From positions 1-64,000 of the forward strand of contig JAVRCV020000056.1 of assembly GCA_034530615.2 (NCBI GenBank): DNA of 64,000 bases. Reading direction: 5' to 3'. The notes beneath the pieces were generated by a model that saw only the letters and a list, made by a program, of their open reading frames with translations, was not told the origin of the DNA and did no database searches. Numbering within the stretch: position 1 is the stretch's first letter; each line of letters starts with the position of its first letter. Both the position numbers and the translations under genes were made by a program. This DNA is from Aulosira sp. ZfuVER01. Lineage in GTDB: Bacteria > Cyanobacteriota > Cyanobacteriia > Cyanobacteriales > Nostocaceae. Shown piece after piece: positions 15,890-36,558 of the stretch.

Positions 15890-18235
15890 TTAATGCGATA
15901 GACCAATAGCAGCTTGATACAAAGATTGAATCTTTTGCCCATCATGGGGATACTCAACCACAGCACAATTGCAAGCTACTTGAAAGCGATCGCCTCCGGG
16001 AATTGTGAATATTTGTTGGCGAAGGGTAGTTAAAATGTTACCAAGGCGGTCTTTGACTTCTGTTTTTGTTAACCCAGAAATCCCTATTACAAATTCGCCA
16101 TTGCCCCAATAACCGAGAACTTCACCACTGCAAAAGGCTGATTGAAATAGGCTACTCCATCTTTGCAATACTTGGTTTCCAGTTTCATGTCCGTACTTGC
16201 TATTAATTTGGCGTAACTCAGTCACACTCAATATCGCCAAGCAAAGGGAGTGTTGATGTTTCTGGGCTTGAACAATCAACTTTTGTAAGTCGCGGCTAGA
16301 CTGTAACTGATTTGCTAGTCCGGTTAAAGGGTCTTTGGTAGAGAGGGATTTAAGTAAGCGGCTGCGTTCTAAGCGATGGGTAATGCGTGCCAAAAGTTCT
16401 ACCCCGACAACCGGTTTCACCACATAGTCATCTCCGCCAACAGCAAACACCTGCTGCACGGTTTCTATATCCCGGTGTGCGGTGAGAAACACAATTGGTA
16501 ATTCCTGCCATTGGGGATCGGTGCGTACTGCTTGACACAGTTCTATCCCACTGATGTGGGGCATCTCTACATCCAAAATTAATAAATCTGGTGTGGTAGA
16601 TTGCAGTACCTCCCAGAAACGCAGGGGTTCATCTAAGCCCACGATCCGCATACCCCAAGGTTCTAACATGGGGCGCAATGCTGCTAAAACTACAGGATCG
16701 TCATCTACTACTAATACATTTACCCGCAGAGTATGGGTACGCTGTAATAATTGAGATGAACTATCCCAGATTTGAGCAGCTGTTACAGGCTTGGCTAAAA
16801 AACCCCGCGCCCCATACTGAGCCAAAGTTACACGTTCTACTAGTTCATCAGCAGCAGCTATCACAAGAACGGGTATAGGCGGAGTACGGGTTGCTAACTC
16901 TGATAAAAGTGCCAAACTTTCTTGCCGACATCCCACCTCACCTACATTTAGCACCACTAGATCGGGTGATGTAGTTTGCAATAAGTTTTTTGCATCCTCT
17001 AACTTAGTAATTTGCTGCCAGTGAATTCCTAAGTTCTGAACAAGTTGTTGCAACTGAGAACCCAGTTGCGGATCGGGGTCAATTAGTAGCAGTCGCGTAT
17101 TAATTTCTTCTACTATCAAATTGGTAGTTAGATTCTCAACCTTTTGCCCCATCAAGTTGATTAAGTTACCCAACTCTTGAATTTGCGATCGCAACTGACT
17201 TTTTTGGGTTGAAGACAAATCTCCATCTTTGCTGAGAATCTGTTCAATTTCCCTGGCTATTTGAGTACCAGTTTCTTGCTCAAACATTCCCAAAACGCCA
17301 GCTAGCTTATGTGCTTCTTTTTCTGCGGCTTGGCGTAACTCCTGAGTTAAGTTGCTAGAGAGGGCGGCGGCGGCTTGTTGCAGTACTGCCATCCGTTGCT
17401 GCATCAGCCCTGCATATTGATGCCACAACTTACTCATGGCTTGGTTGAACTGCTGTTCAATCTTCGAGATTGGTAATTTTTCTTGCTTTCCTCTAGTTAC
17501 CGTTGTAGGTTCCTGTTTAGTTGATTTCGGGCTTTCCTGCTTTCCTTGCTCACCTGCTTCTTTTACAGATGGGTTTAATCGATATCCCAAACCATAAACG
17601 TTTTCAATCCAGTCTACTGCTCCGGCGGCTTTCAACTTTTGCCGTAAGCCTTTAATGTGCGATTTTACACTTTCTTCTTGAGGCGGATCGTCAAAAGTCC
17701 AGAGATGTTCGATAATGTTCCCGCGGCTGAAAACCCGGGAAGGATTGCGGATAAATAGCTCTAGCAGGCTGTATTCTTTAGGTGTTAAATCTAGAACTTT
17801 ACTGTTAAATGTTACTTCACAACTACTGGGGTCGAGACGCAATCCCCCAATTTCCAATACTAAGGAAACTGGAGTATCAGCCCGACGTAACAGCGCCCGA
17901 ACTCTGGCTTGCAGTTCTCCTAAATCTAAAGGTTTAATCAGATAATCATCTGCACCAGCATCAAGCCCACGAATGCGATCGCTAGTTGCATCTTTTGCAG
18001 TCATTAACAAAATGGGAGTAGAATTGCCACTGGAGCGTAAGCGTTGACATAAGCTAATACCGTCCAGTTTGGGCAATCCCACATCTATTAATATCAAATC
18101 GTAGTTATAACTTTGAGTATATTCCCAACCCACAGATCCATCTTGTGCGATGTCAACCACATAGTGTTGTTGCGTTAGCGAATTCAATAAGATATTTACT
18201 AAAACCTCATCATCTTCGATCAGCAAGATTTTCAT
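15890..18235 (-). CDS. RcaC-like multidomain response regulator: REC-OmpR wHTH-Hpt-REC-REC-degenerate GGDEF
   Basis: MKILLIEDD start (ORF track extends to 18253); LTPKEYSLLELF..IENVYGLGY wHTH; EAHKLAGVLG Hpt; two more REC; DPLTGLAN..GYWGNGEF. Confidence 0.85.
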   Translation of the reverse strand: MKILLIEDDEVLVNILLNSLTQQHYVVDIAQDGSVGWEYTQSYNYDLILIDVGLPKLDGISLCQRLRSSGNSTPILLMTAKDATSDRIRGLDAGADDYLIKPLDLGELQARVRALLRRADTPVSLVLEIGGLRLDPSSCEVTFNSKVLDLTPKEYSLLELFIRNPSRVFSRGNIIEHLWTFDDPPQEESVKSHIKGLRQKLKAAGAVDWIENVYGLGYRLNPSVKEAGEQGKQESPKSTKQEPTTVTRGKQEKLPISKIEQQFNQAMSKLWHQYAGLMQQRMAVLQQAAAALSSNLTQELRQAAEKEAHKLAGVLGMFEQETGTQIAREIEQILSKDGDLSSTQKSQLRSQIQELGNLINLMGQKVENLTTNLIVEEINTRLLLIDPDPQLGSQLQQLVQNLGIHWQQITKLEDAKNLLQTTSPDLVVLNVGEVGCRQESLALLSELATRTPPIPVLVIAAADELVERVTLAQYGARGFLAKPVTAAQIWDSSSQLLQRTHTLRVNVLVVDDDPVVLAALRPMLEPWGMRIVGLDEPLRFWEVLQSTTPDLLILDVEMPHISGIELCQAVRTDPQWQELPIVFLTAHRDIETVQQVFAVGGDDYVVKPVVGVELLARITHRLERSRLLKSLSTKDPLTGLANQLQSSRDLQKLIVQAQKHQHSLCLAILSVTELRQINSKYGHETGNQVLQRWSSLFQSAFCSGEVLGYWGNGEFVIGISGLTKTEVKDRLGNILTTLRQQIFTIPGGDRFQVACNCAVVEYPHDGQKIQSLYQAAIGLSH

Positions 18236-18513
18236 GACTAAACTAGTCTTCAATAACGTGAGTTACCGTCTTGTCTATCGATGCACCTATGACCTGTATC
18301 GTTAATCATAATCTCTATTGGTTCTTTTGTACCATTTTGACAGCGTTAGCGATCGCTTGCGGTTTTTTCATATTTAGTAACACTCTGTGAATGAATTGCG
18401 TGCAAATCCAAAGATTGTATTAGGAAATATTGGCACTTACTCAAAAATATGATAACTAAGTAAAACCTTACATACCAAATATGAAATAGTTCTTGAAGGA
18501 GTAATACCAAGAA

Positions 18514-18882
18514 ATGTTAAGGAAATCCATCCTTATATGTGACGATCTTGTGGATAACTGTATTATCCTTCAAGTAATTTTAGAAATGGAAGGATATACA
18601 GTTGAGTGTGTAACCTCTGGTATAGAAGCCATCAATCAAATTAAATTAAATAAACCCGATTTGCTATTGCTAGATGTAATGATGCCGGGATTGAATGGTT
18701 TTGAAGTAGTTAAACTGCTCCGGCAAGATCAACATTTGCAAACTCTACCTATTTTGCTGATTACAGCATATAAACAAATGATTGTCCCGAAGTTAACTCA
18801 CATAAAAGTTAATAAAGTTCTCCACAAACCTGTGAATAGTGACGACTTGGTTGAAACAGTTCATGAGGTTCTACAAGCTTAG
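18514..18882 (+). CDS. Single-domain response regulator
   Basis: ILICDD, PDLLLLDVMMPGLNGF, KP motif. Confidence 0.85.
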   Translation: MLRKSILICDDLVDNCIILQVILEMEGYTVECVTSGIEAINQIKLNKPDLLLLDVMMPGLNGFEVVKLLRQDQHLQTLPILLITAYKQMIVPKLTHIKVNKVLHKPVNSDDLVETVHEVLQA

Positions 18883-18972
18883 AAATACGAGTAGCTGTAG
18901 ATTAGTTCAACAGGTTTATGAAGAAAGCTATCAACCTTTATATTGCTATTATATTTAAAATAAAAATCAACC

Positions 18973-20334
18973 TCATGCTAACCGTTCTGCTACAGTGCGA
19001 TCGCTAGAAAATAGAGAAAGAAAATTATTATTTGTGCGTTTGCGTCCCCGTTTCATTTCTTTTTTGATTTCATCGATGTAAGGGCAAAAATCTACCTGCA
19101 TTGTGTGTCGTTTGGAATTGACATACTGTTTTTGTGTCAGTCGCCGTTCTTTCTCTATATGGCGCAACATTTCTGCTTTGCTTGGTAAACTGACGTTTCC
19201 AGTAATCACTTCAGCAATCCACTTAGATTGCCATTCGGCTAAAGGCATAATTGCACCTATGGGTTGCAACAAACCAATAAAGTAAAGATTGGGATGTTCT
19301 GGGTGTACAACTCGCTTGTACAGGGGAAATTCATTATCTTGGGGATTAATAAACTCTTTGTCAAAAAACGGAAAAGCAATTTTATAACCCGTACCGTAAA
19401 TAATGATATCTATTGGCAGTTCTGTACCATCTTCAAAACGCACGCGATCGCCTGCGAGTTCTTTGATGTTTGGTTTGATTTTTACCCTACCGTAGCCCAC
19501 AAAATTCAGTAATTCTGAGGAGATTGTTGGATGTTCGCTTAAGAATTTATGGGTGGGATTGGGGAAACCATAAGCTGATTGCGGGCCGCGCGCTAGATAT
19601 AACAGGATTTGACCATATAATCTTCGTAAGGCTAATGGCAACGCAAAAAACAAAGGTGTGAGGTAACTATCAAGAGTTCTACCTAAAATGTACTTTGGTA
19701 AAACATAGGCACTGCGACGAGTAGAAAGATAAGTTTGATTTGCCACTCGTGAAGTCTCACAAGCGATATCACAAGCTGAATTACCAACACCTACAACTAG
19801 AACATTTTTGTCATCCATCCCTTCTGGAGTTTTATAGTCGTGGGTGTGCATTGTCTTTCCCGTAAATTCTCCCGGGAATTTAGGCAAATTTGGACACCAG
19901 TGATGGCCGTTAGCCACAATTACTGCACCATAGCGCTGCGTTCGTTCCCCGTTAGCGTTTTTGATAGTGACATCATAAGTACCATCGCCAACTGGCGCGA
20001 CACGACAGACTTGCGTTTTGAAAGTGATTTTGTCTCGAAACCCAAAATGGTCAACATAAGACTCAAAATATTTGAGAACCTGGTTATGATTGGCATACTG
20101 CGGGTAGTCCTCCGGCATGGGAAAATCAGAGTAGGCCATCTGCCCCTTAGATGAATTGATATGCAAGGATTTATAAGCTGAAGACATCCCGTTATCATTC
20201 ATGTAGCGCCAATTACCACCAATCCCAGAACCTTTTTCAAAGCAGTCAAAGGCTATGCCGCGCTCGTGTAAGATTTTAGCAGCAGCAATTCCGGATGAAC
20301 CAGCACCGATAATACAAACGCGATCAAGAATCAT
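18973..20334 (-). CDS. Class B flavin-containing monooxygenase (FMO-like)
   Basis: IIGAGSSG, FTGKTMHTHDYK (FxGxxxHxxxY), VVGVGNSA. Confidence 0.9.
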   Translation of the reverse strand: MILDRVCIIGAGSSGIAAAKILHERGIAFDCFEKGSGIGGNWRYMNDNGMSSAYKSLHINSSKGQMAYSDFPMPEDYPQYANHNQVLKYFESYVDHFGFRDKITFKTQVCRVAPVGDGTYDVTIKNANGERTQRYGAVIVANGHHWCPNLPKFPGEFTGKTMHTHDYKTPEGMDDKNVLVVGVGNSACDIACETSRVANQTYLSTRRSAYVLPKYILGRTLDSYLTPLFFALPLALRRLYGQILLYLARGPQSAYGFPNPTHKFLSEHPTISSELLNFVGYGRVKIKPNIKELAGDRVRFEDGTELPIDIIIYGTGYKIAFPFFDKEFINPQDNEFPLYKRVVHPEHPNLYFIGLLQPIGAIMPLAEWQSKWIAEVITGNVSLPSKAEMLRHIEKERRLTQKQYVNSKRHTMQVDFCPYIDEIKKEMKRGRKRTNNNFLSLFSSDRTVAERLA

Positions 20335-20434
20335 ATTAGTAATTCCTCAAAATTTGTTATTGTTAATCTTTTTTCTTTTAAATTCTCTGCGGTTCGTAAA
20401 AATACAACCTATAAAAGTGATTTGGTATGAATAT

Positions 20435-21310
20435 TTATTGCTCAGAAATGCATAGCTTCTTTTCTATTATCCAACTTGTCAAAAGATTTTGGTAAGCTAG
20501 CGATCGCTCGGCAAAAAATAGATGCCCCATGCCCTGCAATACAATTAGTTCAGCGTTAGGAATCTGGCTAGTAAGAAATTTTGCGTGTGCAAGAAGGATA
20601 ATTGGATCGCGATCGCCACTCAAAATCAGTGTAGGTGCTTGAATTTTGGGTAAGACATGGCTAATATCCATGTCTGCAAACCACTCAAACAAGTCAACAA
20701 TATTGTTGAGATTGTGTTTGACGGCATCTGGATACACTGCTTCTACTGTTGTTTGTAGAGTAGGTGCATTCCAATAAGCTGCGCGATCGCCTGCGTTAAA
20801 ACTACACGCCAACTTGTAGCCAGCTTGATTGAGCATCAACGCTTTGCAGAGAATTTTACAAAGGAATTTACCAATTACACTATTTTGAGTTAGCCTCTGT
20901 AACCATCCCAATAAACCGTGCCATTGTCCTTGAGAAAAACCAGAAATGCAGAAAACACCTTTTATTTGTTCGGGAAAATTAGCCGCGAGGTTTAAAGCAG
21001 CAAACCCACCTGTTGAATAACCAACTAAAGCCACTGGTTGCTTACCTACCAATTTGTGAATTGCACTCATCAGGATATCGGCTAGCATATCTGCTGTTAA
21101 TAACTCAGGTTGATAGGAGTCGGGATAATGGCCAGGCAAACTGAGGGAATACCAAGGAAGATGTTCTCTAACGAGGGGTGGTAAGTTTGCTATCCAAAAA
21201 TTAGCAGACAGCGTTATTCCATGCAGAAAAATAATTGGTATTCCTGGTTTATTTTGATTTGCACCAAGTGATATTAATTGATGTTCGCCAACTTCAATGT
21301 ACTGTGACAT
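20435..21310 (-). CDS. Alpha/beta hydrolase (possible ACP thioesterase)
   Basis: FLHG, GYSTGG nucleophile elbow, GDRDP, GMGH. Confidence 0.85.
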   Translation of the reverse strand: MSQYIEVGEHQLISLGANQNKPGIPIIFLHGITLSANFWIANLPPLVREHLPWYSLSLPGHYPDSYQPELLTADMLADILMSAIHKLVGKQPVALVGYSTGGFAALNLAANFPEQIKGVFCISGFSQGQWHGLLGWLQRLTQNSVIGKFLCKILCKALMLNQAGYKLACSFNAGDRAAYWNAPTLQTTVEAVYPDAVKHNLNNIVDLFEWFADMDISHVLPKIQAPTLILSGDRDPIILLAHAKFLTSQIPNAELIVLQGMGHLFFAERSLAYQNLLTSWIIEKKLCISEQ

Positions 21311-21767
21311 GAGAAGTAACTAATTCTTTTTCTGGCTGTATCTTACTTACACGCTGCCAAATTAAGCTACCAACAATCTCAATACCATTGACAAGCATAG
21401 GAGGTGTACTCAAAGTAAGTTGTTCGCCATTTAATTGTACAAACCGGACTTGATTTACACCTACCCAGTTTTGGAAAAAACTCACTTCCACATGATGAAT
21501 AACTCGTTCACCTTGAATTTCATAAGTTCCACAATAAGAAACATAACTGTCAGTCGCAGCCACTTTTTCTTCCACAGTACCCGCTGCAATATCTCCGGCT
21601 TGAAATTGCGGACGGTTCGCTTTCATCATTGCTACAGAAACATAGCCATTATCTGTATAAATAATGTAGCCACTGGGGTTATCTCCTAAAGGATAAAAAA
21701 CTTGACCAGTTTCAGTTCTAGTTTCACAGCTAAGAAGTTTCCAAGTACCTACCAGATTATTTTGCAT
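21294..21767 (-). CDS. Lipocalin-like domain protein
   Basis: LVGTWKLLS..PLGDNPSGYIIYTDNGYVS..YVSYCGTY..NWVGVNQVR. Confidence 0.8.
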   Translation of the reverse strand: MQNNLVGTWKLLSCETRTETGQVFYPLGDNPSGYIIYTDNGYVSVAMMKANRPQFQAGDIAAGTVEEKVAATDSYVSYCGTYEIQGERVIHHVEVSFFQNWVGVNQVRFVQLNGEQLTLSTPPMLVNGIEIVGSLIWQRVSKIQPEKELVTSHVTVH

Positions 21768-21822: not shown

Positions 21823-22707
21823 TTAATCAATGCGGCGAAAAGTTAAGCGTAAAAGAAGTAAATCTCCAGTTAAAAAGCCTAGAAGTGCCAGATAAAGATA
21901 ACGTTCGTAGCGATCGAAAACAGTTTTACCAACCAAATTGATGATTTCTGTACGCTTGCTTCTGAAGTTAGTTAACCATGCTTGGAGAGTGCGGACATAA
22001 TCTAGGCGATCGTTGCGAACTGTAATTACTTCAAAAATACCTTCTGCAGCGGCGGTAATTTCTGTGAGTCGCGGAGAATCAGATTCGGGAAATATTTCTT
22101 GATTAGCAAACTGAGCGCCTAAACTTTTTTGTACTTCTTCTGGTTTTCTCTTCCCATAGGCGATAGTTTGAATGGACATCGAACCCCCGGGATTCAACCA
22201 TTCATAACAGCGATTAAAGAAGGTACGATAAACATCAATTTTTTCCTGGCTGGATAATTCTGGTTTGACAAAATGTTCAAAAGCACCAATAGAAATAATG
22301 GCATCAAAAGGCTGTATTGGTGAGTAGTTTAACCAGCTTTCGAGATTAACTTCAATTTGAGGATGCTTGTTAGCAGAAATCCAATTCTTTTGAGCTTCAC
22401 TTAATGTTAGTCCTACAGCTTGCTCAACTCCATGCACATCTACTAAACGTTTGAGTACTGTTCCCCAACCACAACCGATATCTAAAACTCGCTTGGCATT
22501 CTTGGCTTTAGCTTGATTAATATGAAAATCAACTTTTCTAATTTGAGCTAATTCCAGTGCTTCCTCTGGTTCGCCTTCTTCCCAGATAGCACAAGAATAA
22601 ATCATAGTACTATCTAGCCAAAGTTGATAAAAATCATTGCCTACATCGTAATGGTGTTGGATTGCTTGAGGCGAAGCCCCAGGAGTTGCGGTGTTTGCAG
22701 TAGTCAT
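21823..22707 (-). CDS. Cyclopropane-fatty-acyl synthase-family SAM methyltransferase
   Basis: IQHHYDVGNDFYQLWLDSTMIYSCA, VLDIGCGWG, SIGAFEHF, IFP. Confidence 0.9.
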   Translation of the reverse strand: MTTANTATPGASPQAIQHHYDVGNDFYQLWLDSTMIYSCAIWEEGEPEEALELAQIRKVDFHINQAKAKNAKRVLDIGCGWGTVLKRLVDVHGVEQAVGLTLSEAQKNWISANKHPQIEVNLESWLNYSPIQPFDAIISIGAFEHFVKPELSSQEKIDVYRTFFNRCYEWLNPGGSMSIQTIAYGKRKPEEVQKSLGAQFANQEIFPESDSPRLTEITAAAEGIFEVITVRNDRLDYVRTLQAWLTNFRSKRTEIINLVGKTVFDRYERYLYLALLGFLTGDLLLLRLTFRRID

Positions 22708-22749: not shown

Positions 22750-23061
22750 CTAGAGCGCAATTTTAAGTTCTGTTGTGCCTGCTGCTAAACGTTGTGACAA
22801 AACTTCGATACTGGGTAAGTCATATAATAAAGTTGGCGATAAATCCTGTCCGATTAAACTTTCTAAATGGGAAATCAAACTGACTGATGATAATGAATCT
22901 AAACCGTATTCATTAAACCGAGCTTTAATATTAACTTGATGTGGCTCAACTTCTAAAATTTCGGCAATATAAGCAACTATCGATTCTTGAATTACCTCTG
23001 CACTCAGAGTATTTTTTTGAGAGTCTAAGGCATTATTAGTAACAGTACTGGTGAGTTCCAT
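22750..23061 (-). CDS. Acyl carrier protein (JamC-like)
   Basis: FNEYGLDSLSS phosphopantetheine site, LSPTLLYDLPSI; ATG at 23061 (ORF track 23067). Confidence 0.85.
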   Translation of the reverse strand: MELTSTVTNNALDSQKNTLSAEVIQESIVAYIAEILEVEPHQVNIKARFNEYGLDSLSSVSLISHLESLIGQDLSPTLLYDLPSIEVLSQRLAAGTTELKIAL

Positions 23062-23107: not shown

Positions 23108-23142
23108 AGATTAGAGATAAATCGGGGAGAACTAGGGGAGAA
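23108..23142 (-). promoter_or_regulatory. Conserved promoter box copy 1 (upstream of ACP sub-operon)
   Basis: minus strand TTCTCCCCTAGTTCTCCCCGAT-TTATCTC-TAATCT. Confidence 0.8.
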
Positions 23143-23268: not shown

Positions 23269-24282
23269 TTAGTCAAAAGCTTGAGAATTCCATAAACGCC
23301 GCCAAGCTTCTGTAATTGTTAATTGATTATAGTCTTGAGGAAAGTGCTTTTTCAGCAGATCGCTGACTAATGGATAGTAAGAAGGATGCATTGCTGGAAA
23401 TAGATGATGTTCGGTGTGATAAGAGAAATTGTTATGAATCAAATTGAACAAGGGAGGTACTGTTACAGATGTAGTACCTTGCACAGAATTATTTTGCGCT
23501 TTTATAGGATTGAGGAAATGATTCGTCGCTACATAAATGACTTCAATCACTGAAGCAATCAATATAGGTAATATCCCAACAAATAAGTACTTTAACCAGT
23601 TACATTGAACGGCTGAAAAAATTATAGTCTGGATTAAAATGATAATGCCTGTTTCAATAATAATTGAGAATTTTTCTTTGAGAGTATATGGTACTTGATA
23701 AGGAACTATATACAGCTTGCTTTTTGGTGAGATAAAAACAGCTATGAAATTACGCAAGATGTAAAAGACAAAGTGAATATAGGCGAAAGGATTAATGAAT
23801 CTTAGTAGTAATTTGTTTTTCTGCGGATAGAAGATCCAAGTATAAATCCATTTAATACAAGTTTTTTCTGAAGTTAACCATCGCCGATCGGGGTCTTTAA
23901 ATGTTGCTGCATTAGGATGATGCGTTCGATGATGAATATGTATCCACATCGTTAGAGGGATAAAATTTATTCCCCACACTAACACTTCTAGAAAATGTCT
24001 CTGCCAAGATTTTGCCATAACTGAGCCATGACTCAAATCGTGACCAAAAAAAACTAGACCTGGCAAGCAATTTCCTGACAATAAACTTGCAAGTAAAAAT
24101 ATCCAAATATTATTGGAGTAGTGTGTTAAGGTAATTGCTGAGATAAATAGCGAAAAATTAGCCAGAAAATACCAGAGATAACTTGGCTTTTTTTGAAAAG
24201 CTTCTTTAGGTAAAAAAGGACGGATGGTTTGAATATAGTATTGATCTGTATGTGTTAGGGGCTGTTGCTCTGTCGTATTCAT
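23269..24282 (-). CDS. Membrane fatty acid desaturase
   Basis: His boxes HDLSH, HIHHRTHH, HTEHH. Confidence 0.9.
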   Translation of the reverse strand: MNTTEQQPLTHTDQYYIQTIRPFLPKEAFQKKPSYLWYFLANFSLFISAITLTHYSNNIWIFLLASLLSGNCLPGLVFFGHDLSHGSVMAKSWQRHFLEVLVWGINFIPLTMWIHIHHRTHHPNAATFKDPDRRWLTSEKTCIKWIYTWIFYPQKNKLLLRFINPFAYIHFVFYILRNFIAVFISPKSKLYIVPYQVPYTLKEKFSIIIETGIIILIQTIIFSAVQCNWLKYLFVGILPILIASVIEVIYVATNHFLNPIKAQNNSVQGTTSVTVPPLFNLIHNNFSYHTEHHLFPAMHPSYYPLVSDLLKKHFPQDYNQLTITEAWRRLWNSQAFD

Positions 24283-24341: not shown

Positions 24342-25310
24342 TTATAGCAATCGCACGCTTTTTGATTGCATCATTTCCGGTGTAGGTTGATTCACATCCC
24401 AAACTAAACCTAGACTCTGCAATACCACAATTACCCAATAGCCAATGTCAATTTGCCACCATTGCAACCCAAATTTAGCTGAGTTTTGAAAAGCGTGATG
24501 ATTGTTGTGCCAAGATTCGCCAAAAGTAGGTAAAGCCAGCCAAAGATTATTTGTGCTTTTTTCTTTGGTATCAAAACTACGAGTACCATAAAGATGGCAA
24601 ATTGAGTTAATGCACCAAGTTGTGTGCTGTCCTAAATATAGACGAATAACTCCACCCCACAAAAAACCATGCCAAGCACCAATCCAATTTCCTGTAAGAA
24701 TAAAAGCGACAACCGCCGGAAAAACCAGACCCAAAATCACCCAAACAAAATACAGTTGGTTAAGCTTGCAAATTGTTTTGTCTCGTAGCAGTTCCGGTGC
24801 ATAGTAAAGTGGGTTGGGATAATCGTACTCAACTTTCCACCACAGATGAGCGTGCCAAAATCCGGAAAGCTGATTGCGCCAACCTGTACCGTGTAAATGT
24901 GGAGAATGGGTATCCCCAACCTCATCACTATAGCGATGGTGGTGTCTGTGGTTAGCAACCCAAGAAAGCACAGGGCCTTCCGCACCTGTGGAACCGAGAA
25001 TTACTAGCAGAATCCGAATAATTGGATGTGCTTGAAAAGCACGATGGGTAAAGTAGCGGTGATAGCCAACGGTAATTCCTACAGAGGTGAGAAACCACAT
25101 CCCTAGAAACACTGTGATATCAACTATACCGATTGGCTTGCCCCATAAACAGGCGATCGCTAAAATAAACCCAACAAAAGGTAGAACATCACACAATAAA
25201 AAATGACGCTTTTGCAACAACTTAATGTAGCTGTTGCTCATGGTTTTCTTCTTTAATAAATCAGTAGCACGATTAATTGATGCAGATTCAACGCTAATAC
25301 TGGTTTCCAT
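24342..25310 (-). CDS. JamB-like acyl-ACP desaturase/acetylenase (delta-9 family)
   Basis: HRYFTH, HRHHH, HNNHH boxes; RHFLL and YPNPLYYAPELLRDKTI segments recall JamB. Confidence 0.8.
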   Translation of the reverse strand: METSISVESASINRATDLLKKKTMSNSYIKLLQKRHFLLCDVLPFVGFILAIACLWGKPIGIVDITVFLGMWFLTSVGITVGYHRYFTHRAFQAHPIIRILLVILGSTGAEGPVLSWVANHRHHHRYSDEVGDTHSPHLHGTGWRNQLSGFWHAHLWWKVEYDYPNPLYYAPELLRDKTICKLNQLYFVWVILGLVFPAVVAFILTGNWIGAWHGFLWGGVIRLYLGQHTTWCINSICHLYGTRSFDTKEKSTNNLWLALPTFGESWHNNHHAFQNSAKFGLQWWQIDIGYWVIVVLQSLGLVWDVNQPTPEMMQSKSVRLL

Positions 25311-27976: not shown

Positions 27977-28011
27977 AAGTTAAAGAGCGATCGGGGAGAA
28001 CTAGGGGAGAA
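27977..28011 (-). promoter_or_regulatory. Conserved promoter box copy 2 (upstream of coq4-FAAL operon)
   Basis: minus strand TTCTCCCCTAGTTCTCCCCGAT-CGCTCTT-TAACTT. Confidence 0.8.
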
Positions 28012-28122: not shown

Positions 28123-28515
28123 TCAACTCTCTATTTCGCTATAAGCCCAACCCAATACTTCACTGATTTGCCCTGCCAGTTTTAAAGGACGAAAAGGCTT
28201 GGCAAATATAGCGGCTACATCTAATCCAGTAAAGCAGTCTTGATCTGAATCTTGAACTTTGGCAGTGAGTAAAATTACTGGAATTTGCTGAGTAACAGGG
28301 TTAGCCTTTAATTTTTGCAAGGTGGCACGCCCATCCATATCAGGCATCATCATATCTAGCAGGATGACATCAACTTGTGAGTTGGCAGCTATATTCAACG
28401 CTTCCCGTCCAGAACAAGCCGTCAACACATTCCAACCAGCACCCAATTCTAATCCCAATTTAGCGATCGCCTGCACATCTTCTTCATCATCAACAATCAA
28501 GATATTTCTGCTCAT
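28123..28515 (-). CDS. Single-domain response regulator (RcaF/CheY-like)
   Basis: MSRNILIVDD..ILLDMMMPDMDG..AKPF; the longer 28581 start overlaps the promoter box. Confidence 0.85.
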   Translation of the reverse strand: MSRNILIVDDEEDVQAIAKLGLELGAGWNVLTACSGREALNIAANSQVDVILLDMMMPDMDGRATLQKLKANPVTQQIPVILLTAKVQDSDQDCFTGLDVAAIFAKPFRPLKLAGQISEVLGWAYSEIES

Positions 28516-28567: not shown

Positions 28568-28602
28568 ATTCTAAAATGCAATCGGGGAGAAGTGGGGGAG
28601 AT
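28568..28602 (-). promoter_or_regulatory. Conserved promoter box copy 3 (upstream of single-REC gene)
   Basis: minus strand ATCTCCCCCACTTCTCCCCGAT-TGCATTT-TAGAAT. Confidence 0.8.
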
Positions 28603-28620: not shown

Positions 28621-30150
28621 CTAATTAGAGACAGCTAAAGGTAAAAGTACATAAAAGGTGCTACCTTCCCCTAAAACGCTTTGAACCCAGATTTTACCGT
28701 TATGTTGCTGCACAATATTCCGGCAAATCGCCAGTCCTAAACCTGTTCCGCCTTTGTTGCGAGAATCAGATGCATCTACCTGCTGAAAGCGCTCAAAGAT
28801 AATTTGTAATTTATCTTCAGGAATTCCTCGCCCTTCATCTCGAATAGTAATCAACAGGTAGCTGGGTGTATCTTTTTGAGACTCAACACCTTGATTTTCT
28901 GAAAGTGTCGCACCGATCCAAACAGTATCCCCTGGTTCCGAAAACTTAATCGCATTGCTGAGTAAGTTAGTCAAGGTTTGCAAAAGGCGATCGGAATCTG
29001 CCCAAAGTTCAACTGCTAAAGGATTAACAATTAGTTTGACTTGGAGTTTATCTGCCATTGCTTGCATGGCTTCTGTTGCTGTAATCAGCAGTTCAGCAGC
29101 GTTGCACTTGCCCATACGCATGAAGATTTTGCCCGATTTCATCCGTTCTAAATCGAGAATATCGTTCACCAAACGAATTAGACGTTCCGTGTTATTGGTA
29201 GCAATGCTCAAAACTTTTTGTCCCTGTGCAGTTAAAGTTCCTAGTTGTCCTGCACCCAATAAATCTAATGCTCCCATTGTTGAAGTTAAAGGTGTACGTA
29301 ACTCATGACTGACTAAAGAAATAAACTCGTTTTCTAGGCGTTTGCGTTCGGTGATGTCATTGGCAATTAATAAAGCGCATGGTACTCCCGCTAGATCAAT
29401 TAATTCGATAGAAAGTAAGATGGTTTTGATTTCGGCAGATTTGGTAGAAAATTCAAATTCCAGATTGTACAGTGAACCACTATCAGGTAAACGTTGAATT
29501 GTTTGGGCGATCGCTGCTGTATTTTTACCTAAATCGAGTTCTGCAACTGTATGTCCAATTACCTCTTCTAAACAATAGCCACTCATTTTTAAGAAGCTGG
29601 GATTGACATCAAGAACCCGCGCTTCCGAAATTGTGGCGATCACGATCGGGTTAGGACTAGAACGAAAAACTTTAGCAAACTTCTCTTCGGCTTTAGCGCG
29701 CTCTCTTATTTCTTGCTGTAACTGCTGATTTTGCGCTTGGAGTTGCTTTTGGAGTTGGCGAATCGTCAAGTGATTTTCAATTCTGGCTAAAACTTCTTCT
29801 AGTTGAAAAGGCTTAGTAATATAGTCAACCCCGCCAACTGCAAACGCCTTCACCTTATCCAACACATCACCCAAAGCGCTGATAAAAATTACCGGAATCT
29901 CACAAGTGCGATCGCTTGTCTTTAATTGTTGACAAACTTCATAACCATTCATCTCTGGCATATTCACATCTAGCAAAATCAAATCAGGAGGAACTGCATT
30001 TGCTCCCCGCAACCCTGTAGAACCTTTAGTCACGCTGCGAACTTTATATCCTTGTTCGGTCAGCATCGCAGATAAAAGATTTAGATTTTCCGGTGTATCA
30101 TCAATTACCAATATGTCTGCTTTCGGAGAGTTGGATAATTGTTTGGGCAT
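28621..30150 (-). CDS. Hybrid histidine kinase REC-PAS-HisKA-HATPase
   Basis: ILVIDD..DVNMP; VSHELRTPL; NLLSNAIKF; GGTGLGLAIC. Confidence 0.92.
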   Translation of the reverse strand: MPKQLSNSPKADILVIDDTPENLNLLSAMLTEQGYKVRSVTKGSTGLRGANAVPPDLILLDVNMPEMNGYEVCQQLKTSDRTCEIPVIFISALGDVLDKVKAFAVGGVDYITKPFQLEEVLARIENHLTIRQLQKQLQAQNQQLQQEIRERAKAEEKFAKVFRSSPNPIVIATISEARVLDVNPSFLKMSGYCLEEVIGHTVAELDLGKNTAAIAQTIQRLPDSGSLYNLEFEFSTKSAEIKTILLSIELIDLAGVPCALLIANDITERKRLENEFISLVSHELRTPLTSTMGALDLLGAGQLGTLTAQGQKVLSIATNNTERLIRLVNDILDLERMKSGKIFMRMGKCNAAELLITATEAMQAMADKLQVKLIVNPLAVELWADSDRLLQTLTNLLSNAIKFSEPGDTVWIGATLSENQGVESQKDTPSYLLITIRDEGRGIPEDKLQIIFERFQQVDASDSRNKGGTGLGLAICRNIVQQHNGKIWVQSVLGEGSTFYVLLPLAVSN

Positions 30151-30380: not shown

Positions 30381-30386
30381 GTTAAT

Positions 30387-30421
30387 GTCTCCCCCAGTTC
30401 TCCCCGATTGTTTTTTATTTT
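30387..30421 (+). promoter_or_regulatory. Conserved promoter box copy 4
   Basis: GTCTCCCCCAGTTCTCCCCGAT-TGTTTTT-TATTTT upstream of 30461. Confidence 0.75.
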
Positions 30422-30460: not shown

Positions 30461-31006
30461 ATGACAAATCAACAAATATCTTCTTTACCAAAAACCGCCC
30501 GTCTTTTTGCTGCTTTGGGTTTAACTCTCAGTGCTAGCCTTTTTGTTTACCCTAGTACCAGTCAAGCAGGTAAAAATGGTGGGGCGATACCTGCTGAACT
30601 CCAAGGTGAGTGGCTTTACGGTCGAATTTCTTCTATCCAATACCAAGACCAAATTACAGGACAGTCAGCAGCACCGAATGGTTCGAGCGATCGCTTCCTA
30701 GTCGCAGCTAACGGTAGCTACCAGCGACAAAGGTTAATTCAAATCAACACCTACAACTGTGCGTCTAACCTCTTCATACAAGAGAAAGGTAAAGTTAGCG
30801 CTGACGATCGACAACTCACCTTCCAACCGACTGAAAGCTCATCTAAAGGGCAAATCTGCAATACTGGTCGCACTTACTCTGGAAAGAACACAGCCAAGCC
30901 TGAAACCTACGCTTGGTCAATCTCTAAAAACGAATACGGACAAGAAGTCCTCTTGCTTCAGACTACCGATGGTCAGGGTCAAGCTCATTATGGACGACCT
31001 CAGTAG
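30461..31006 (+). CDS. Secreted beta-rich hypothetical protein (lipocalin-like fold possible)
   Basis: Signal peptide ending SQA; IPAELQGEW motif; two Cys. Confidence 0.7.
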   Translation: MTNQQISSLPKTARLFAALGLTLSASLFVYPSTSQAGKNGGAIPAELQGEWLYGRISSIQYQDQITGQSAAPNGSSDRFLVAANGSYQRQRLIQINTYNCASNLFIQEKGKVSADDRQLTFQPTESSSKGQICNTGRTYSGKNTAKPETYAWSISKNEYGQEVLLLQTTDGQGQAHYGRPQ

Positions 31007-31101
31007 CTCAGTCACACAATTTTGGATTTATTCCGAGATAAATTTGCTTTCTCTAAGCTTGTTTAAATTTTTAAATCTAAAATTCGCTAGCAATTAGATT
31101 T

Positions 31102-31136
31102 TTCTCCCCTAGTTCTCCCCGATTGTTTCTTAATCT
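31102..31136 (+). promoter_or_regulatory. Conserved promoter box copy 5
   Basis: TTCTCCCCTAGTTCTCCCCGAT-TGTTTCT-TAATCT upstream of 31163. Confidence 0.8.
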
Positions 31137-31162
31137 ATAAAATATCGAACAGAGGTTATTCT

Positions 31163-31645
31163 ATGATTCACCATATTTCTTTTGCTGTTAACAACCCTCA
31201 ACACGTTGCCCAAGTTTTGGCAGAAATTTTAAAAGCAGAAGCTGTTCCATTTCCTCCTCACCCAGGTAGCTATATGGTTATACCTTTTGATGAACATGGT
31301 ACAGCCATTGAACTTTATCCTTTAGGTACTCAATTAGAACCTGGTGAAGGTGATGGACAATGTGCATTTGTACAAAATTCTATTTCTCCTAAGTTCGTAG
31401 ATATTCATGCAGCTATTTCTGTACCTGCTAGTCAAGAAGAAATTCAAAAAATTGGTGCGCGTGAAGGTTGGCGTGTTGTACGCTGTACCCGTGAAACTTT
31501 TTTTGATGTCATTGAGTTCTGGGTAGAAAACAGACTTATGATCGAACTGCTAACACCAGAAATGGCAACTCAATACGTAAAATTTACAACTCACCCAGAA
31601 ACTCGAAAAATATTTACGGCAGAACCTGCTTTAGCCACAGCATAA
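31163..31645 (+). CDS. VOC/glyoxalase-like hypothetical protein
   Basis: MIHHISFAV, GTAIELYP, HAAISV, VIEFWVENRLMIELL pattern. Confidence 0.65.
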   Translation: MIHHISFAVNNPQHVAQVLAEILKAEAVPFPPHPGSYMVIPFDEHGTAIELYPLGTQLEPGEGDGQCAFVQNSISPKFVDIHAAISVPASQEEIQKIGAREGWRVVRCTRETFFDVIEFWVENRLMIELLTPEMATQYVKFTTHPETRKIFTAEPALATA

Positions 31646-31836
31646 GTTTTGTTCGCAACTTTAGCACAGTTTTTATTTGAATAAATTGAAGCTTTATACT
31701 TAACTTAAAACTTCTCCTTTTACCGATCAAGAGGAGAAGTATATTTATTTTTGCGTTTTATTTGCGCAGTTGCGATCGCTATTAGTTTAATCAAGCAAAT
31801 TATAGTCTGTTATGGACTTTCTACTTCAACTAGTAA

Positions 31837-34800
31837 TTAGTTAAATAGATGTGATGTCAGTTCGAGAATTTCATCAAAGCAGAAACTCCGGACTAAATTT
31901 AATAATTTTTCTGCTAAGTCAGCATGAGATTGCGGAATTTGCTCAATTAATTGAAAAATTCTCTCACCATCAACTGCAATAGCTGCTTGATGAAGTTCCC
32001 CTATCCATTCAGTGGGCATAATTGTAATTGCAGAATGAATATCTAACATAGAATATTGAACATTCTCTGACTTTTTATCTGTTATATTTTCGCTACTTTC
32101 TTCTGAGAAAAGATAGCTTAAATGTAAATATTCAGCTATCTTTTCAAAAATTATTTGTTCGCGGAATGGTTTGCGAATTAAGTCGTCGCACCCTGCGGCT
32201 AAAATACTTGCTTGTTGTTCTTCAAAAGCACTGGCTGTCAGAGCAATAATCACTGTGTGGGAATTTGTCTCTAAACTTCTCTCCCTAGCTCTAATTTCTT
32301 TAGTGGCATCGTAGCCGTTCATTACAGGCATCCGCATATCCATCCAAATTAACTGAGGTTGCCATTTCTGCCACATAGCGATCGCTTCTTGTCCGTTACT
32401 AGCAGCCTCAACTTCAAAGCCAACACCGCCTAGAAGTTGCATCATTAAATCGCGGTTTTCTTTGCGATCGTCAACTACGAGAATACGGTAAGTTGGTTGG
32501 TCTGCTGCTAGTTTGAGTACGCGCCCCCGACTCAACTTTGGTGTAACTTTTAATGGTGTGGCTAAATTAACTTGAATGTCAAAGCTAAAAGTAGATCCTT
32601 GCCCTAAATTACTGCAAAGGTGAATATCTCCTCCCAACAACCGCACAAACTGTCGGCTAATAGTTAGACCTAGCCCAGTACCCTCCTTGGTTTGAATACC
32701 ACTGCTTGTCTGGACAAACGGCTGAAACAGATTATTCATTTCTGCTGCTGCTATCCCCCGTCCAGTATCCTCAACTTCAAAGATGATGAATTGGGAATGG
32801 GGCATAGATTTGTAGTTATTCTCCTTGTCCCCCTTGTCTCTCTTGCCCCCCTTGTCCCCCGCATCCCCCTCATCCCCCAATCTCGCCCGCAACGTCACTC
32901 CCCCGGTTTGGGTGAACTTGATGGCGTTACCCAACAGGTTGATCAAAACTTGGCGGAGTTTACCTTCATCTGTTTGGATATAACGCGGCAGATCGGCAGC
33001 AATTTCAAACTTGAGGTACAACTGTTTTGTCTGCGCCCGTACCTGAAACATTTCTTGTAATGTTTGCAACATCAGGTAGAGGTCGAAGTCTTCAGGATTG
33101 AAAACGATTTGTCCGGCCTCAATTTTGGACATTTCCAGGACATCGTTAATCAGGTTGAGTAGATGTTCTCCACTACGGTTAATCGTAGCTAAAGATTCAC
33201 GCTGGTTTGAGTTGAGACTAGCGTCTCGCTCCATCAACTGAGAAAAACCTAAGATGGCATTGAGAGGAGTGCGGAGTTCGTGGCTCATGTTAGCCAAGAA
33301 AGCACTTTTGGCACGGTTGGCAGTTTCGGCGGCTTCTTTTGCTACTCTCAAGGCTGCTTCTGCTTGATGTCTAGCCCTACCGATCGCAATGATTTCACCT
33401 ACCAATTTCAGGAGATTCATCTCCTGTTGATTCCAGTTTTTCGTATAGTGAATAGTATCTGCGGCAATAAACCCGACTACTTTACCAGAATGAATCATTG
33501 GTACACCTAATGCAGATTTAATTGACTGATTTTCAAAGAATTCTTTCTCAGGTGTATCGGGTGGTAAATCGGCTATGCATGGCAAAACAGAATTTTGCCC
33601 TATAAGTATTGGTGCAAGTAAAGGGAACATTTCTAAATTGCCCCTTCTGGCATTACCGCTTAATGGTGGAATATCAGCAGCACGCCATTCATGGACTATG
33701 TAGACTTCCCTTGGCTGATCGGATAACTCAAAAATCGAGCAGCGTTCAGCATTAATAAATTGAGCGATCGCCTGAAGTGTAAAATTAATTGCTGTGTCTA
33801 TATCTTGGTCGATAAATTGGCGGGAAATACTGCTGAGTATACTTTCTAGTTGAGCGCGACTTTGCAAAGCTTGCTCTACTTGCTTGCGATCGCTGATATC
33901 TGTAAAGACAGAATCTAAACAAGATTCTTCGGCGTTGAGGCGCAGTGATAATAGTACCCAAACCACAGAGCCATCGCCACGCCGTAGTGCTAATTCAAAA
34001 TTGCGAACTTCGCCAGATGCTGCTAACTCTGCTAACATCCGGGCGCGATCGTTGGGATTAACATACAATTCAGTTGTGAAATACCTGCCAATCAAGTCAC
34101 TAGCAGCAGCGAAACCTAAGATATCAGCACCGCGTTGATTTGCATCGACAATTAATCCATCTTGTTGACGAGTGCGGAAAATCCCTACTTGGGAATTTTC
34201 AAAGATGTTGCGGTATTTCATTTCACTACGACGCAAGGCTTCTTCTGTTTGCTTGCGTTCTGTAATGTCCCGCCCCACACCAGCGATCGCAATTTCACCA
34301 TCAGGAGTGTTAATGGTGGAAGTGTTAAAGCTGAACCATCGCCAGCTATTGTTTTTGTGTCTTAATCGCACCTCAATACCTGTCTGCTTTTCCCCAGCTA
34401 TGGCTTTTTGTATACCTGCGGCGCTAATTGCTAAATCTTCAGGATAAGTAAATTCGACTACAGAATGTCCCTCGATTTCTGGCAGGGTGTAGCCCATAAT
34501 TGGAGTCACATTAGGCGAGTGGTAAGTAAAAATTCCCTCTGGAGAGATGGTAAAAATTAAGTCATTGGCATTCTCTACAATAGTGCGGAACTTGATTTCA
34601 CTTTGTTGCAAAGCTGCTTGGGCGCGTTTACGTTCTGTAGCATCGGTACCAACTGAAAGTATTTCGATTAAGTTGCCTTGCTCGTCTAAAATAGGTTTAT
34701 TTGCCCAAACTATCCAGACGCGATCGCCATTTTTGCACGAGTTTTCATTTTCATTGAATAGGTAGTTTTCTGGGTGCTGGCAAATATCAACCATTAAAGC

Positions 34801-36558
34801 CTGTAAGTCGCGCCCAGAAGTTTCAGTTTCGGGGACAATTGTCCCGACCACATTGCGTCCTATAATCTCTTGGGCATCAAAACCAAAAAGCTTTTGACCG
34901 TAGTCATTTAAGTATATGATGTCACCGTGACTGTCCCAACGCAGAATAATGCAGTTGGCTGTTTGTACCAAATCGCGATACTGGACTTCGCTTTGTCGCA
35001 AAGCTGCTTCTGTGCGTTTGCGATCGCTAATATCTCGGACTATTGCCAAGACGTGTCGTTTGCCATTGTAAATGCAAGTCGTTCCTTTAACTTCCACATC
35101 TATTAAAGTGCCATCTTTGCAGATATCAACAGCTTGTCCATAAAATTGCCCCCCAGCGCGCGTTGTCTCAAGAAACTCATAGAAAACCGGATGTGAATTT
35201 GGGTGAATGTAAACTGATGGATGCAAAGTAATAAATTCTTCGTAAGTATAACCATGCATCTGACAAGCAGCGGGATTAACTTCGGCAACTGTTTCGGTTT
35301 CTATGTCAGTAATAAATAGTCCATCATTAATCGCTTCAAAAATACTGCGATATTGCAACTCACTTTGTCGCAATGCTGCTTCTGTTTTTTGGCGTTGGGT
35401 GACATCACGGAAACTCCACACTCTACCAATAATCTGGTCTTTGATGCGCTGAGGACAGGAGTATCTCTCAAAAACCCTACCATCTTGCAATTCTAAAAAG
35501 TCGTAACTATCTAGCTCTGGCTGGGCGTATAATTCTCGAACTCGCTGCAAAAATCCCTGAGGATCTTTTAACTGGTTTGCCAAATACGCCAGCCGCTTAG
35601 GATGGTCTGGTTCTGTTAAAAGTTCTGGTGGAATTGACCACATTTCTAAGAACTTTTGATTGTAACTGGTGATATTTCCTAAGCTATCAATTGCTAAGAT
35701 ACCGTCTTGAATCGATTCCAAGATCGCGCTTAACAAAGATAAGGAGTTTTCTAAAGCTACTTGGGTAAGTTTGCGATCGCTAACATCACGCCCTAAAACT
35801 ACCAGCGCCTTGCGTCTACCATCTGGGTGAAATACAGGCACTTTAATCATATCCACAATGCTCACTGTACCATCAGGGCGAGGTACAACTTCTTCTACCC
35901 GATTTACAGATCCCTGCTGCCAAGCTTGTTCGTCTGTTTGGTCGCAATTGAGTAAAGTATCGTGATAAAAATCGCTAAATTGCGCTAGTTCGGAATCAGT
36001 TTTTCCTTTGTAATCAACACCATGTATCTCTAAAAATTCCAGGTTAGCTTGATTCGACTCCAGCCATTTTCCTTCGCTGTCCTTTAAACAGATAATATCT
36101 GGTGTCGCGTTAATTAGCGTGCGTAAACGTTCTTCACTCTCTTGGAAGGATTTTTGAGCTTGTTGAGCCAGCGTAATATCCTGAATTACTAGTACAGCAC
36201 AATCATCCTCATTCAGTCCCGCACGACTACCAGAGATTTGCAGCACCAAAGAACGCTTACCTTGATGAAACTCATACTCTGTAGTTTCGTACTTTCCATT
36301 TTGGATCAGCACATCAGGGTAGGAGTTTAAAGCAACAGGTTTTCCTAATTTTAATAAGGGTAGTAACTCACTTAGCTGCCAGCCTGCGATCGCACTTTTG
36401 GGCCGATTCACCAGACACTCAAAGCTAGAATTACACCATTGAACACGTCGGTCTTCCCCAACCCAGACTACAGCATCAGCGATCGCACCTAGCGTTACTT
36501 CCATCTTGGTAAGGGTTGCTTGCAATAGCTTAACCTGCTCTAGCTGTTCAGCGCTCAT
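31837..36558 (-). CDS. Cytoplasmic multi-PAS/GAF hybrid sensor histidine kinase with C-terminal REC
   Basis: About seven PAS/PAC units (DITERK/DISDRK ends), GAF, FLANMSHELRTPLN, GTGLGL, ILVVDD..WMDMRMP; no evident TM helix. Confidence 0.92.
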   Translation of the reverse strand: MSAEQLEQVKLLQATLTKMEVTLGAIADAVVWVGEDRRVQWCNSSFECLVNRPKSAIAGWQLSELLPLLKLGKPVALNSYPDVLIQNGKYETTEYEFHQGKRSLVLQISGSRAGLNEDDCAVLVIQDITLAQQAQKSFQESEERLRTLINATPDIICLKDSEGKWLESNQANLEFLEIHGVDYKGKTDSELAQFSDFYHDTLLNCDQTDEQAWQQGSVNRVEEVVPRPDGTVSIVDMIKVPVFHPDGRRKALVVLGRDVSDRKLTQVALENSLSLLSAILESIQDGILAIDSLGNITSYNQKFLEMWSIPPELLTEPDHPKRLAYLANQLKDPQGFLQRVRELYAQPELDSYDFLELQDGRVFERYSCPQRIKDQIIGRVWSFRDVTQRQKTEAALRQSELQYRSIFEAINDGLFITDIETETVAEVNPAACQMHGYTYEEFITLHPSVYIHPNSHPVFYEFLETTRAGGQFYGQAVDICKDGTLIDVEVKGTTCIYNGKRHVLAIVRDISDRKRTEAALRQSEVQYRDLVQTANCIILRWDSHGDIIYLNDYGQKLFGFDAQEIIGRNVVGTIVPETETSGRDLQALMVDICQHPENYLFNENENSCKNGDRVWIVWANKPILDEQGNLIEILSVGTDATERKRAQAALQQSEIKFRTIVENANDLIFTISPEGIFTYHSPNVTPIMGYTLPEIEGHSVVEFTYPEDLAISAAGIQKAIAGEKQTGIEVRLRHKNNSWRWFSFNTSTINTPDGEIAIAGVGRDITERKQTEEALRRSEMKYRNIFENSQVGIFRTRQQDGLIVDANQRGADILGFAAASDLIGRYFTTELYVNPNDRARMLAELAASGEVRNFELALRRGDGSVVWVLLSLRLNAEESCLDSVFTDISDRKQVEQALQSRAQLESILSSISRQFIDQDIDTAINFTLQAIAQFINAERCSIFELSDQPREVYIVHEWRAADIPPLSGNARRGNLEMFPLLAPILIGQNSVLPCIADLPPDTPEKEFFENQSIKSALGVPMIHSGKVVGFIAADTIHYTKNWNQQEMNLLKLVGEIIAIGRARHQAEAALRVAKEAAETANRAKSAFLANMSHELRTPLNAILGFSQLMERDASLNSNQRESLATINRSGEHLLNLINDVLEMSKIEAGQIVFNPEDFDLYLMLQTLQEMFQVRAQTKQLYLKFEIAADLPRYIQTDEGKLRQVLINLLGNAIKFTQTGGVTLRARLGDEGDAGDKGGKRDKGDKENNYKSMPHSQFIIFEVEDTGRGIAAAEMNNLFQPFVQTSSGIQTKEGTGLGLTISRQFVRLLGGDIHLCSNLGQGSTFSFDIQVNLATPLKVTPKLSRGRVLKLAADQPTYRILVVDDRKENRDLMMQLLGGVGFEVEAASNGQEAIAMWQKWQPQLIWMDMRMPVMNGYDATKEIRARERSLETNSHTVIIALTASAFEEQQASILAAGCDDLIRKPFREQIIFEKIAEYLHLSYLFSEESSENITDKKSENVQYSMLDIHSAITIMPTEWIGELHQAAIAVDGERIFQLIEQIPQSHADLAEKLLNLVRSFCFDEILELTSHLFN

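Follow-up and report, generated by a model that had tools for sequence, protein, structure and literature searches.

A promoter box and a conserved phosphorelay that probably control exchangeable biosynthetic genes in Aulosira sp. ZfuVER01 and its relatives

This study examined a stretch of 64,000 nucleotides from Aulosira sp. ZfuVER01 (Nostocaceae; assembly GCA_034530615.2, contig JAVRCV020000056.1, positions 1 to 64,000, forward strand), referred to as the window, in which a nine-gene fatty-acid cassette (27943 to 18973, minus strand) lies among phosphorelay genes. The sequence evidence makes it probable that two kinases, a 130-aa receiver and an OmpR/Hpt regulator form a conserved phosphorelay with a regulon defined by a promoter box, and that this regulon carries exchangeable biosynthetic cargo. 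The cargo is the nine-gene cassette in the window and lanthipeptide genes in most relatives. Most likely, it serves as a general switch for genes of natural products and does not sense its own fatty acid. New here is an orphan fatty-acid cassette as an interchangeable output of the relay; literature searches, whose coverage took in few subscription papers, returned no description of this cassette or box.

The promoter box and the relay

Five copies of the box, TCTCCCC-N4-TCTCCCC-GAT, are present in the window. On the minus strand, Box 1 (23121-23141; with its -10 hexamer 23108..23141) lies ahead of the genes from the acyl carrier protein (ACP) to the flavin monooxygenase, Box 2 (27990-28010; 27977..28010) ahead of the genes for the Coq4-like protein, the fatty acyl-AMP ligase (FAAL) and the desaturases, and Box 3 (28581-28601; 28568..28601) ahead of the 130-aa receiver. 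On the plus strand, Box 4 (30388-30408; 30388..30421) and Box 5 (31103-31123; 31103..31136) precede the genes of a 181-aa and a 160-aa protein. The distance from box to start codon is 60-86 nt for the ACP, Coq4-like, 130-aa receiver, 181-aa and 160-aa genes. An earlier note on this DNA had placed one type of promoter box ahead of both synthase sub-operons, one receiver gene and two accessory genes, and five exact sites were found there. Its further proposal, that the relay activates synthesis of a modified fatty acid and of one of its own components, is likely right, given that the box leads both the cassette and the 130-aa receiver.

The chance expectation for the box in the window is 0.01, allowing up to 2 mismatches. 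The exact box occurs at 5 sites in the 8,029,144-base genome, every one in the window; under a weight matrix these sites score 42-58 bits and the next genomic site 11.4. Among 94 distinct sites, 93 carry a TAnnnT hexamer 10 nt downstream of the second repeat, and none carries it at offsets of 1 to 3 nt; the loci counted were not selected for the hexamer, and those fetched with a hexamer-containing pattern were left out. Tandem 7-mers at an 11-bp period that replace the -35 element are the usual site geometry of the OmpR/PhoB family. In layout, the box corresponds to an activator site standing in for the -35 element.

The box is likely a real activator-type promoter element, and the OmpR/Hpt regulator (15890..18253, minus strand; 787 aa from a TTG, or 781 aa from the seventh codon) is its likely binder, as judged from co-occurrence across genomes. 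The exact box was found in 30/301 genomes of the family and a reversed control in 0. A search at the order level with a looser spacer gave the box in 11/401 genomes, with six single-copy matches having other spacers. For closer comparison, 80 genomes were examined: 32 carry the exact box, and the other 48, mostly of the same genera, lack it. Regulator orthologues were defined by at least 61% identity over residues 1-370, paralogues reaching at most 57%. By this threshold an orthologue is present in 30/32 exact-box genomes and in 9/48 without the exact box; among the latter, a one-mismatch box occurs in 8/9 genomes with the regulator and in 2/39 without it. Counting any box, 38/39 regulator-positive genomes have one, against 4/41 regulator-negative genomes. 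The recognition helix EE(S/T)(V/I)KSHIK is conserved in regulator orthologues from box-bearing genomes, is altered in the box-free genome G432 and is unaltered in another order. The named orthologue of N. punctiforme (WP_012411331.1) is 73% identical to the regulator of the window; a search for plasmid copies gave only distant relatives (<46% identity).

Gene calls were made by open reading frame (ORF) calling and Pfam searches on the window, and all genes lie where the earlier note had them. For the regulator, that note had read the order REC-wHTH-Hpt-REC; Pfam and residue inspection instead gave REC-wHTH-Hpt-pseudoREC-REC-degenerate GGDEF. Across 120 homologues, the phospho-residues D57 (119/120), H315 (120/120) and D561 (120/120) are kept. 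In the second receiver, Asn436 replaces the Asp, which is present in just 2/120 homologues, and the GGDEF signature reads GNGEF in most of them. The other conserved members of the relay are a REC-PAS histidine kinase of 509 aa (28621..30150, minus strand; D61 and H282), in which a short hydrophobic window falls within the PAS region; a hybrid kinase of 1573 aa (31837..36558, minus strand) with about seven PAS domains, a GAF, HisKA/HATPase and REC (H1093, D1407); and the box-led receiver of 130 aa from ATG 28515 (28123..28515, minus strand). The hybrid kinase has no 19-residue hydrophobic window above 1.6 and appears to be cytoplasmic. On motif inspection, phospho-acceptor and catalytic motifs are intact in the signalling and cassette proteins. 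An orthologue of the 509-aa kinase occurs in 39/80 genomes; 41 genomes have this kinase, the regulator or both, and in 37 of them both are present. A second lone receiver of 122 aa (18514..18882, plus strand; D54) has no box within 400 nt upstream and adjoins the regulator in only two other examined cassette loci (L130 and L163), and is for these reasons regarded as accessory.

Within the relay, the box is confined to the 130-aa receiver, whose orthologues have it upstream in 15/23 cases; a co-oriented box was found upstream of the regulator in 0/37, of the 509-aa kinase in 0/25 and of the 1573-aa kinase in 0/22. No other member of the relay is boxed, so any feedback would run through this receiver.

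Cargo of the box in related genomes

The earlier note proposed conservation of the signalling genes with the cassette as a check. The cassette methyltransferase (at least 92% identity) was found in 8/80 genomes, each of which has the relay and the box; however, the cassette is present in only 8/41 genomes having either relay marker, and the other 33/41 have the relay without it. In cassette loci that contain the Coq4-like gene, the box lies upstream of that gene in 10/10. The genes that follow 81 box sites show a wider range of targets: cupin (14), HlyD (12), the 160-aa gene (11), Nif11 precursor (11), the 181-aa gene (6), ACP (5), receiver (5), Coq4-like (4), C39 exporter (2), a cytochrome-b5 protein (1) and others (10). 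These sites come from fetched stretches of 31 genomes, and the cassette boxes of G453 and G586 fell outside those stretches. By genome (n=31), the box leads lanthipeptide or exporter genes in 15 and the cassette in 5. Further targets are an M4 protease, a nonribosomal peptide synthetase (NRPS) and a type III polyketide synthase (PKS) region. Because it marks such unlinked clusters under the same control, lanthipeptides and exporters included, the box is usable as a tag for genome mining.

The position of the cargo relative to the relay also varies. The earlier note described the gene set of the window correctly, with its cassette of nine genes, its two kinases, the pair of lone receivers and the OmpR/Hpt regulator, but the enclosed layout that it emphasized is not conserved. 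The slot between receiver and regulator is empty in G602, where the receiver lies directly beside the regulator and there is no cassette, and it holds other genes in G577 and G519. In G434 and G510, what lies nested between the kinase and the regulator is a lanthipeptide cluster. The same cassette arrangement as in the window occurs in Tolypothrix tenuis PCC 7101, Calothrix membranacea FACHB-236 and Nostoc sp. T09, and a partial one in Nostoc sp. 106C; in Nostoc flagelliforme FACHB-838, the 12.6 kb examined hold the cassette and boxes and no relay genes. These named strains and the coded genomes may overlap and were not summed. In G957, which belongs to another order, the relay and a box-led LanM lie on one contig and a box-led cassette on a different one. 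This cassette is 51-74% identical to that of the window, apart from a transposase-displaced hydrolase at 45%. G1026 has the same relay as G957, with a methyltransferase at 53% only.

The lanthipeptide cargo recalls a described system. The nostolanthin cluster (nlt, formerly ripp4) includes a multidomain kinase and a response regulator, NltR1/NltR2, and homologous systems were reported in 57 Nostocales strains, all with LanM (bioRxiv 10.64898/2026.08.14.744816). In relatives of the window strain, relay orthologues flank box-led Nif11 precursors, LanM and NHLP-type exporters and stand beside precursors with the nlt motif: the nostolanthin core motif fits those at L117 and L122, and close variants occur at L022, L120, L154 and L165. 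In both cases, a natural-product cluster of Nostocales is associated with a multidomain kinase and a response regulator. They differ in that the cargo of the window is a fatty-acid cassette and that nlt, as described, counts two regulatory genes; the available text of the preprint gives no promoter motif. No match to an nlt-type precursor was found in the genome of the window, and its two LanM copies (42% and 28%), both on other contigs, are not preceded by a box. The relay of the window resembles the Rca relay in layout and probably the nlt module in ancestry.

Other box-led or relay-associated genes were seen in a few genomes. In G594, G610 and G457 (L131:4457-4774, L129 near 9752 and L137 near 9641), at sites unlinked to the relay, the box leads a small protein (about 95-105 aa) whose N-terminus is signal-like and whose conserved, acidic C-terminus ends in Cys-Phe; a 359-aa gene without a Pfam match lies downstream. 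In G020, a block of genes for phosphate scavenging (phytase-like, nuclease, GDPD, PhoX; L021:2749-11823) separates the receiver from the 509-aa kinase. G957 has a second kinase pair and receiver, adjoining a box-led broken exporter (L204:934-6584).

Proposed mechanism and alternative explanations

The relay may work as follows. A cue from outside or from the state of the cell, not the cassette product, would alter the activity of the cytoplasmic PAS kinases. By analogy with ripp4/nlt of N. punctiforme, this cue most likely comes from outside and may be host contact or hydrophobic density mediators from another cluster: ripp3 and ripp4 are induced by physical contact with Blasia (bioRxiv 10.64898/2026.08.14.744816), and also by nostoclide and nostovalerolactone from the separate pks1 cluster, with no autoinduction described (PMC9324945). 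As the intact residues suggest, phosphate would then pass from the kinase His to a receiver Asp, to H315 of the Hpt domain and to D57 or D561 of the regulator. The winged helix of the regulator would dock on the pair of 7-mers, which are spaced at 11 bp, take the place of the -35 element and end 10 nt before TAnnnT. Genes that the box leads are those of the 130-aa receiver and of the two small core proteins, and the two halves of the cassette.

The earlier note had proposed a circuit of the cassette's own, in which the product would be an autoinducer that a PAS domain of the hybrid kinase may sense, so that the relay would amplify its own signal. Such a loop would agree with the box ahead of the cassette in all ten loci that contain its first gene, with one relay member being box-led and with a cytoplasmic kinase, which suits a diffusible lipid. 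As in the RpfF/RpfR system of the diffusible signal factor (DSF), a cytoplasmic PAS could bind a fatty acid: among solved structures, the fifth PAS (aa 523-645) has its best, though weak, match in the PAS with which RpfR binds DSF (E 4.6e-4), and of the five ligand residues of that receptor (S169, N172, Y183, R187, N202; PMC6361424), Y183 and N202 are kept in 28/28 orthologues in what is a weak alignment. However, LOV domains match this PAS equally well (E 4.8e-4), S169, N172 and R187 are not kept in the same alignment, and the domain is 75-97% identical across relatives irrespective of cargo. It was not found in G957 (99% complete), though that genome has a box-led cassette. Across the seven PAS domains, no column is diagnostic of the cassette (3-5 carriers vs 14 others), and GAF loss (L031, L033, L125, L126 and L128) tracks lineage, not cargo. 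In a tree of 26 509-aa kinases, taken from the loci then fetched with metagenome loci and one likely duplicate left out, a clade of the seven cassette carriers was rejected (p-AU 4e-5); two carriers have kinases nearly identical to those of genomes whose cargo is lanthipeptides or that have no cargo. Five proteins of the G020 cassette were compared and are 82-92% identical to those of the window, whereas its 509-aa kinase is 75% and its regulator, on another contig, 64% identical, which suggests that the cassette moved into a resident relay. Pfam found no crotonase-type RpfF (enoyl-CoA hydratase family) among the cassette proteins; the output by phosphorelay and a sensor that does not co-vary with the cassette are further differences from DSF signalling. 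The lack of cargo-specific sensor residues, together with the lack of a box before the kinases and the regulator, makes a product-sensing loop unlikely. No sensor inherited with the synthase and specific for it emerged, and a dedicated signal-receptor pair was ruled out by the kinase tree, the diagnostic columns and the cassette identities; the relay mostly leads lanthipeptide genes. In a related and equally improbable version, the relay would be a receptor pathway for small hydrophobic cues in Nostocales, whose RpfR-like PAS binds a fatty-acid-type ligand that cassette strains make for themselves. If so, a switch for outside cues would have become an autoinducer loop, the first true one in cyanobacteria, and its signal would be a new oxylipin with a cyclopropyl, methyl or vinyl branch; density-dependent chemical mediators of Nostoc are already described, without autoinduction (PMC9324945).

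Two other explanations keep the box and change its reader or its purpose. There is a small chance that an unlinked transcription factor or an alternative sigma factor binds the box and that the relay genes merely co-travel with it. This would account for the box in 4/41 regulator-negative genomes and gains from a 225-aa paralogue in this genome with a nearly identical recognition helix. Against it, the geometry of the box is typical of OmpR/PhoB-family sites, two of the four exceptions still have the 509-aa kinase and one (G454) resembles a local repeat; the paralogue was rejected as the binder, since it does not track the box (3/5 box-free vs 1/5 box-bearing genomes). The relay might instead answer redox, oxygen, nutrients or light, and the cassette remodel membrane lipids or make a protective lipid, not a secreted metabolite; we give this little weight. 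Multi-PAS kinases often sense redox or oxygen, enzymes of the CMAS type and desaturases modify membrane lipids in other bacteria, and Pfam shows no exporter in the cassette. However, a FAAL with a dedicated ACP is a secondary-metabolite route, as in the fsh pathway (PMC13548996), the box otherwise leads exporter and lanthipeptide genes, an M4 protease, an NRPS and a type III PKS region, and the distribution of the cassette is patchy. The GAF lacks a Cys-His pair, and five orthologues have lost the domain. Several observations weigh against a switch with exchangeable cargo, or against the regulator as its binder. The drafts G460 and G636 are box-positive and gave no regulator match; G432 has the regulator and no box; the near-identical helix of the paralogue belongs here as well; and the -10 position of the G957 cassette box reads TGTAAT. 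A box leads each of the cassettes seen, so that the cassette does depend on the relay. Finally, DNA binding rests on co-occurrence among genomes that are related and were chosen by the box, and the counts are therefore support and not a statistical test.

The relay also recalls RcaE-RcaF-RcaC, the phosphorelay of chromatic acclimation type 3, which likewise comprises a kinase, a lone receiver and an OmpR-class Hpt regulator that activates through a promoter repeat (PMC8256508, PMC13492139, PMC5737509). The likeness that the earlier note drew to RcaC/RcaF holds for this layout and not beyond it: the system of the window lacks a bilin-binding GAF, has two kinases and a regulator with an extra pseudo-receiver and a degenerate GGDEF, and combines a different box with biosynthetic rather than phycobilisome targets. 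No bilin-binding Cys-His pair is present in the GAF of the 1573-aa kinase. The consensus of the L-box, which in the Rca system precedes phycocyanin and phycoerythrin genes, has two matching sites, on contigs C6 and C28, and none in the window. A true Rca system was ruled out on GAF, box and targets.

A probable switch of this kind would bear on how Nostoc senses density mediators and contact with a host, and on how it activates cryptic clusters. The mediator study names no receptor in its main text (PMC9324945), and the nostolanthin preprint, in the text available, only suggests that NltR1/NltR2 may sense the host (bioRxiv 10.64898/2026.08.14.744816). Both the perception of mediators or host and the activation of cryptic clusters become testable with a defined box, a candidate for the regulator and a relay of four proteins. 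Constitutive regulator alleles could turn the cassette on. If a lipid can fill the slot of a symbiosis-linked lanthipeptide, the conserved unit is the regulon and not the molecule.

The fatty-acid cassette and other features of the window

The nine cassette genes all lie on the minus strand. The first encodes a Coq4-like metalloprotein (27203..27943; PF05019; HDxxH-x11-E motif). It is followed by the FAAL (25440..27206; PF00501), whose best NCBIfam matches are FAAL families, below their cut-offs, and by two membrane desaturases (24342..25310 and 23269..24282; both PF00487 with three His boxes), the second of which is optional, being absent from L020, L032 and L034. Behind Box 1 come the ACP (22750..23061; 103 aa from ATG 23061; PF00550; DSL motif), a single-domain methyltransferase of the CMAS/CFAS family (21823..22707; PF02353) that uses S-adenosylmethionine (SAM), a lipocalin-like protein (21294..21767; Lipocalin_5, PF13924, E 1e-37), an alpha/beta hydrolase, predicted to be a thioesterase or hydrolase (20435..21310; PF00561; GYSTGG nucleophile motif), and an FMO-family flavin monooxygenase (18973..20334; PF00743, E 2e-100; two Rossmann motifs and FxGxxxHxxxY). 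The best solved relatives of the CMAS-family enzyme are mycolic-acid and cyclopropane synthases (E ~1e-34), and it scores under the NCBIfam cut-offs of those families.

From these families, the FAAL is predicted to load a fatty acid onto the ACP and desaturase 1, optionally with desaturase 2, to add double bonds. The CMAS-type enzyme would add a SAM-derived carbon as a cyclopropane, methyl or vinyl branch, the FMO and the Coq4-like protein would oxidise or decarboxylate, the hydrolase would release the product, and the lipocalin may bind or cyclise it. The predicted product is a desaturated, SAM-alkylated and oxidised free fatty acid. Coq4 has been described as an oxidative decarboxylase (10.1101/2023.11.13.566839), and in the fischerazole pathway a CMAS-type enzyme turns an ACP-bound alkene into vinyl or cyclopropane products (PMC13548996). 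By family, the fsh starter FshA/FshD/FshE/FshF uses the same four types of protein (FAAL, desaturase, ACP and CMAS) on an ACP-bound fatty acid (PMC13548996). Unlike fsh, the cassette has no PKS, NRPS or halogenase and has genes for a Coq4-like protein, FMO, hydrolase and lipocalin; this lack of PKS and NRPS with the added genes points to a free modified fatty acid. In the orphan cassette, a Coq4-like protein and an FMO accompany the CMAS-type methyltransferase, and the product should be an undescribed fatty-acid derivative. Related FAAL-desaturase-ACP-CMAS starters without a box (~40-60% identity) occur at L200, L201 and L202; at L200 and L201, PKS-like genes follow, as judged on N-terminal sequence only.

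The two small core targets of the box lie between the kinases. The 181-aa protein (30461..31006, plus strand) has a signal-peptide-like N-terminus; it gave no Pfam or NCBIfam match, and its Atlas neighbours are hypothetical proteins, with a weak lipocalin lead at 0.87. The 160-aa protein (31163..31645, plus strand) is possibly VOC/glyoxalase-like: it has no Pfam match, a sequence search gave no solved relative, and an Atlas lead to VOC clusters reaches 0.87-0.88 only. Its fold prediction from the single sequence has a mean pLDDT of 37, too low to be of use.

Several features of the window lie outside the island. A broken HTH gene upstream of 15890 was rejected as the box binder on its sequence, since a stop interrupts its reading frame and no other domain is present. 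At ~15000-15500 on the minus strand there is an N-terminal HTH remnant with an in-frame stop after 29 codons, presumably of the kind found on cyanobacterial NB-ARC proteins, and it has its own 11-bp tandem repeat upstream (15457-15497). Pfam identified baseplate genes of a contractile injection system at 500-12249 (gp25-like, baseplate J and long downstream ORFs). At ~38850-39150, on the minus strand, the sequence looks by eye like a decayed universal-stress-protein gene. At 39584-44053, a pair of XisF-like serine recombinases lies on either side of two split genes, represented by the 3' end of nifK (41165-41443) and the 5' part of nifE (42035-42598), and the remaining halves of the two genes lie on contigs C22 and C63. 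In G453, G586, G577 and G519, the nifK 3' piece lies ~5-12 kb from the 5' part on the opposite strand; in G594, it lies ~410 kb away on the same strand.

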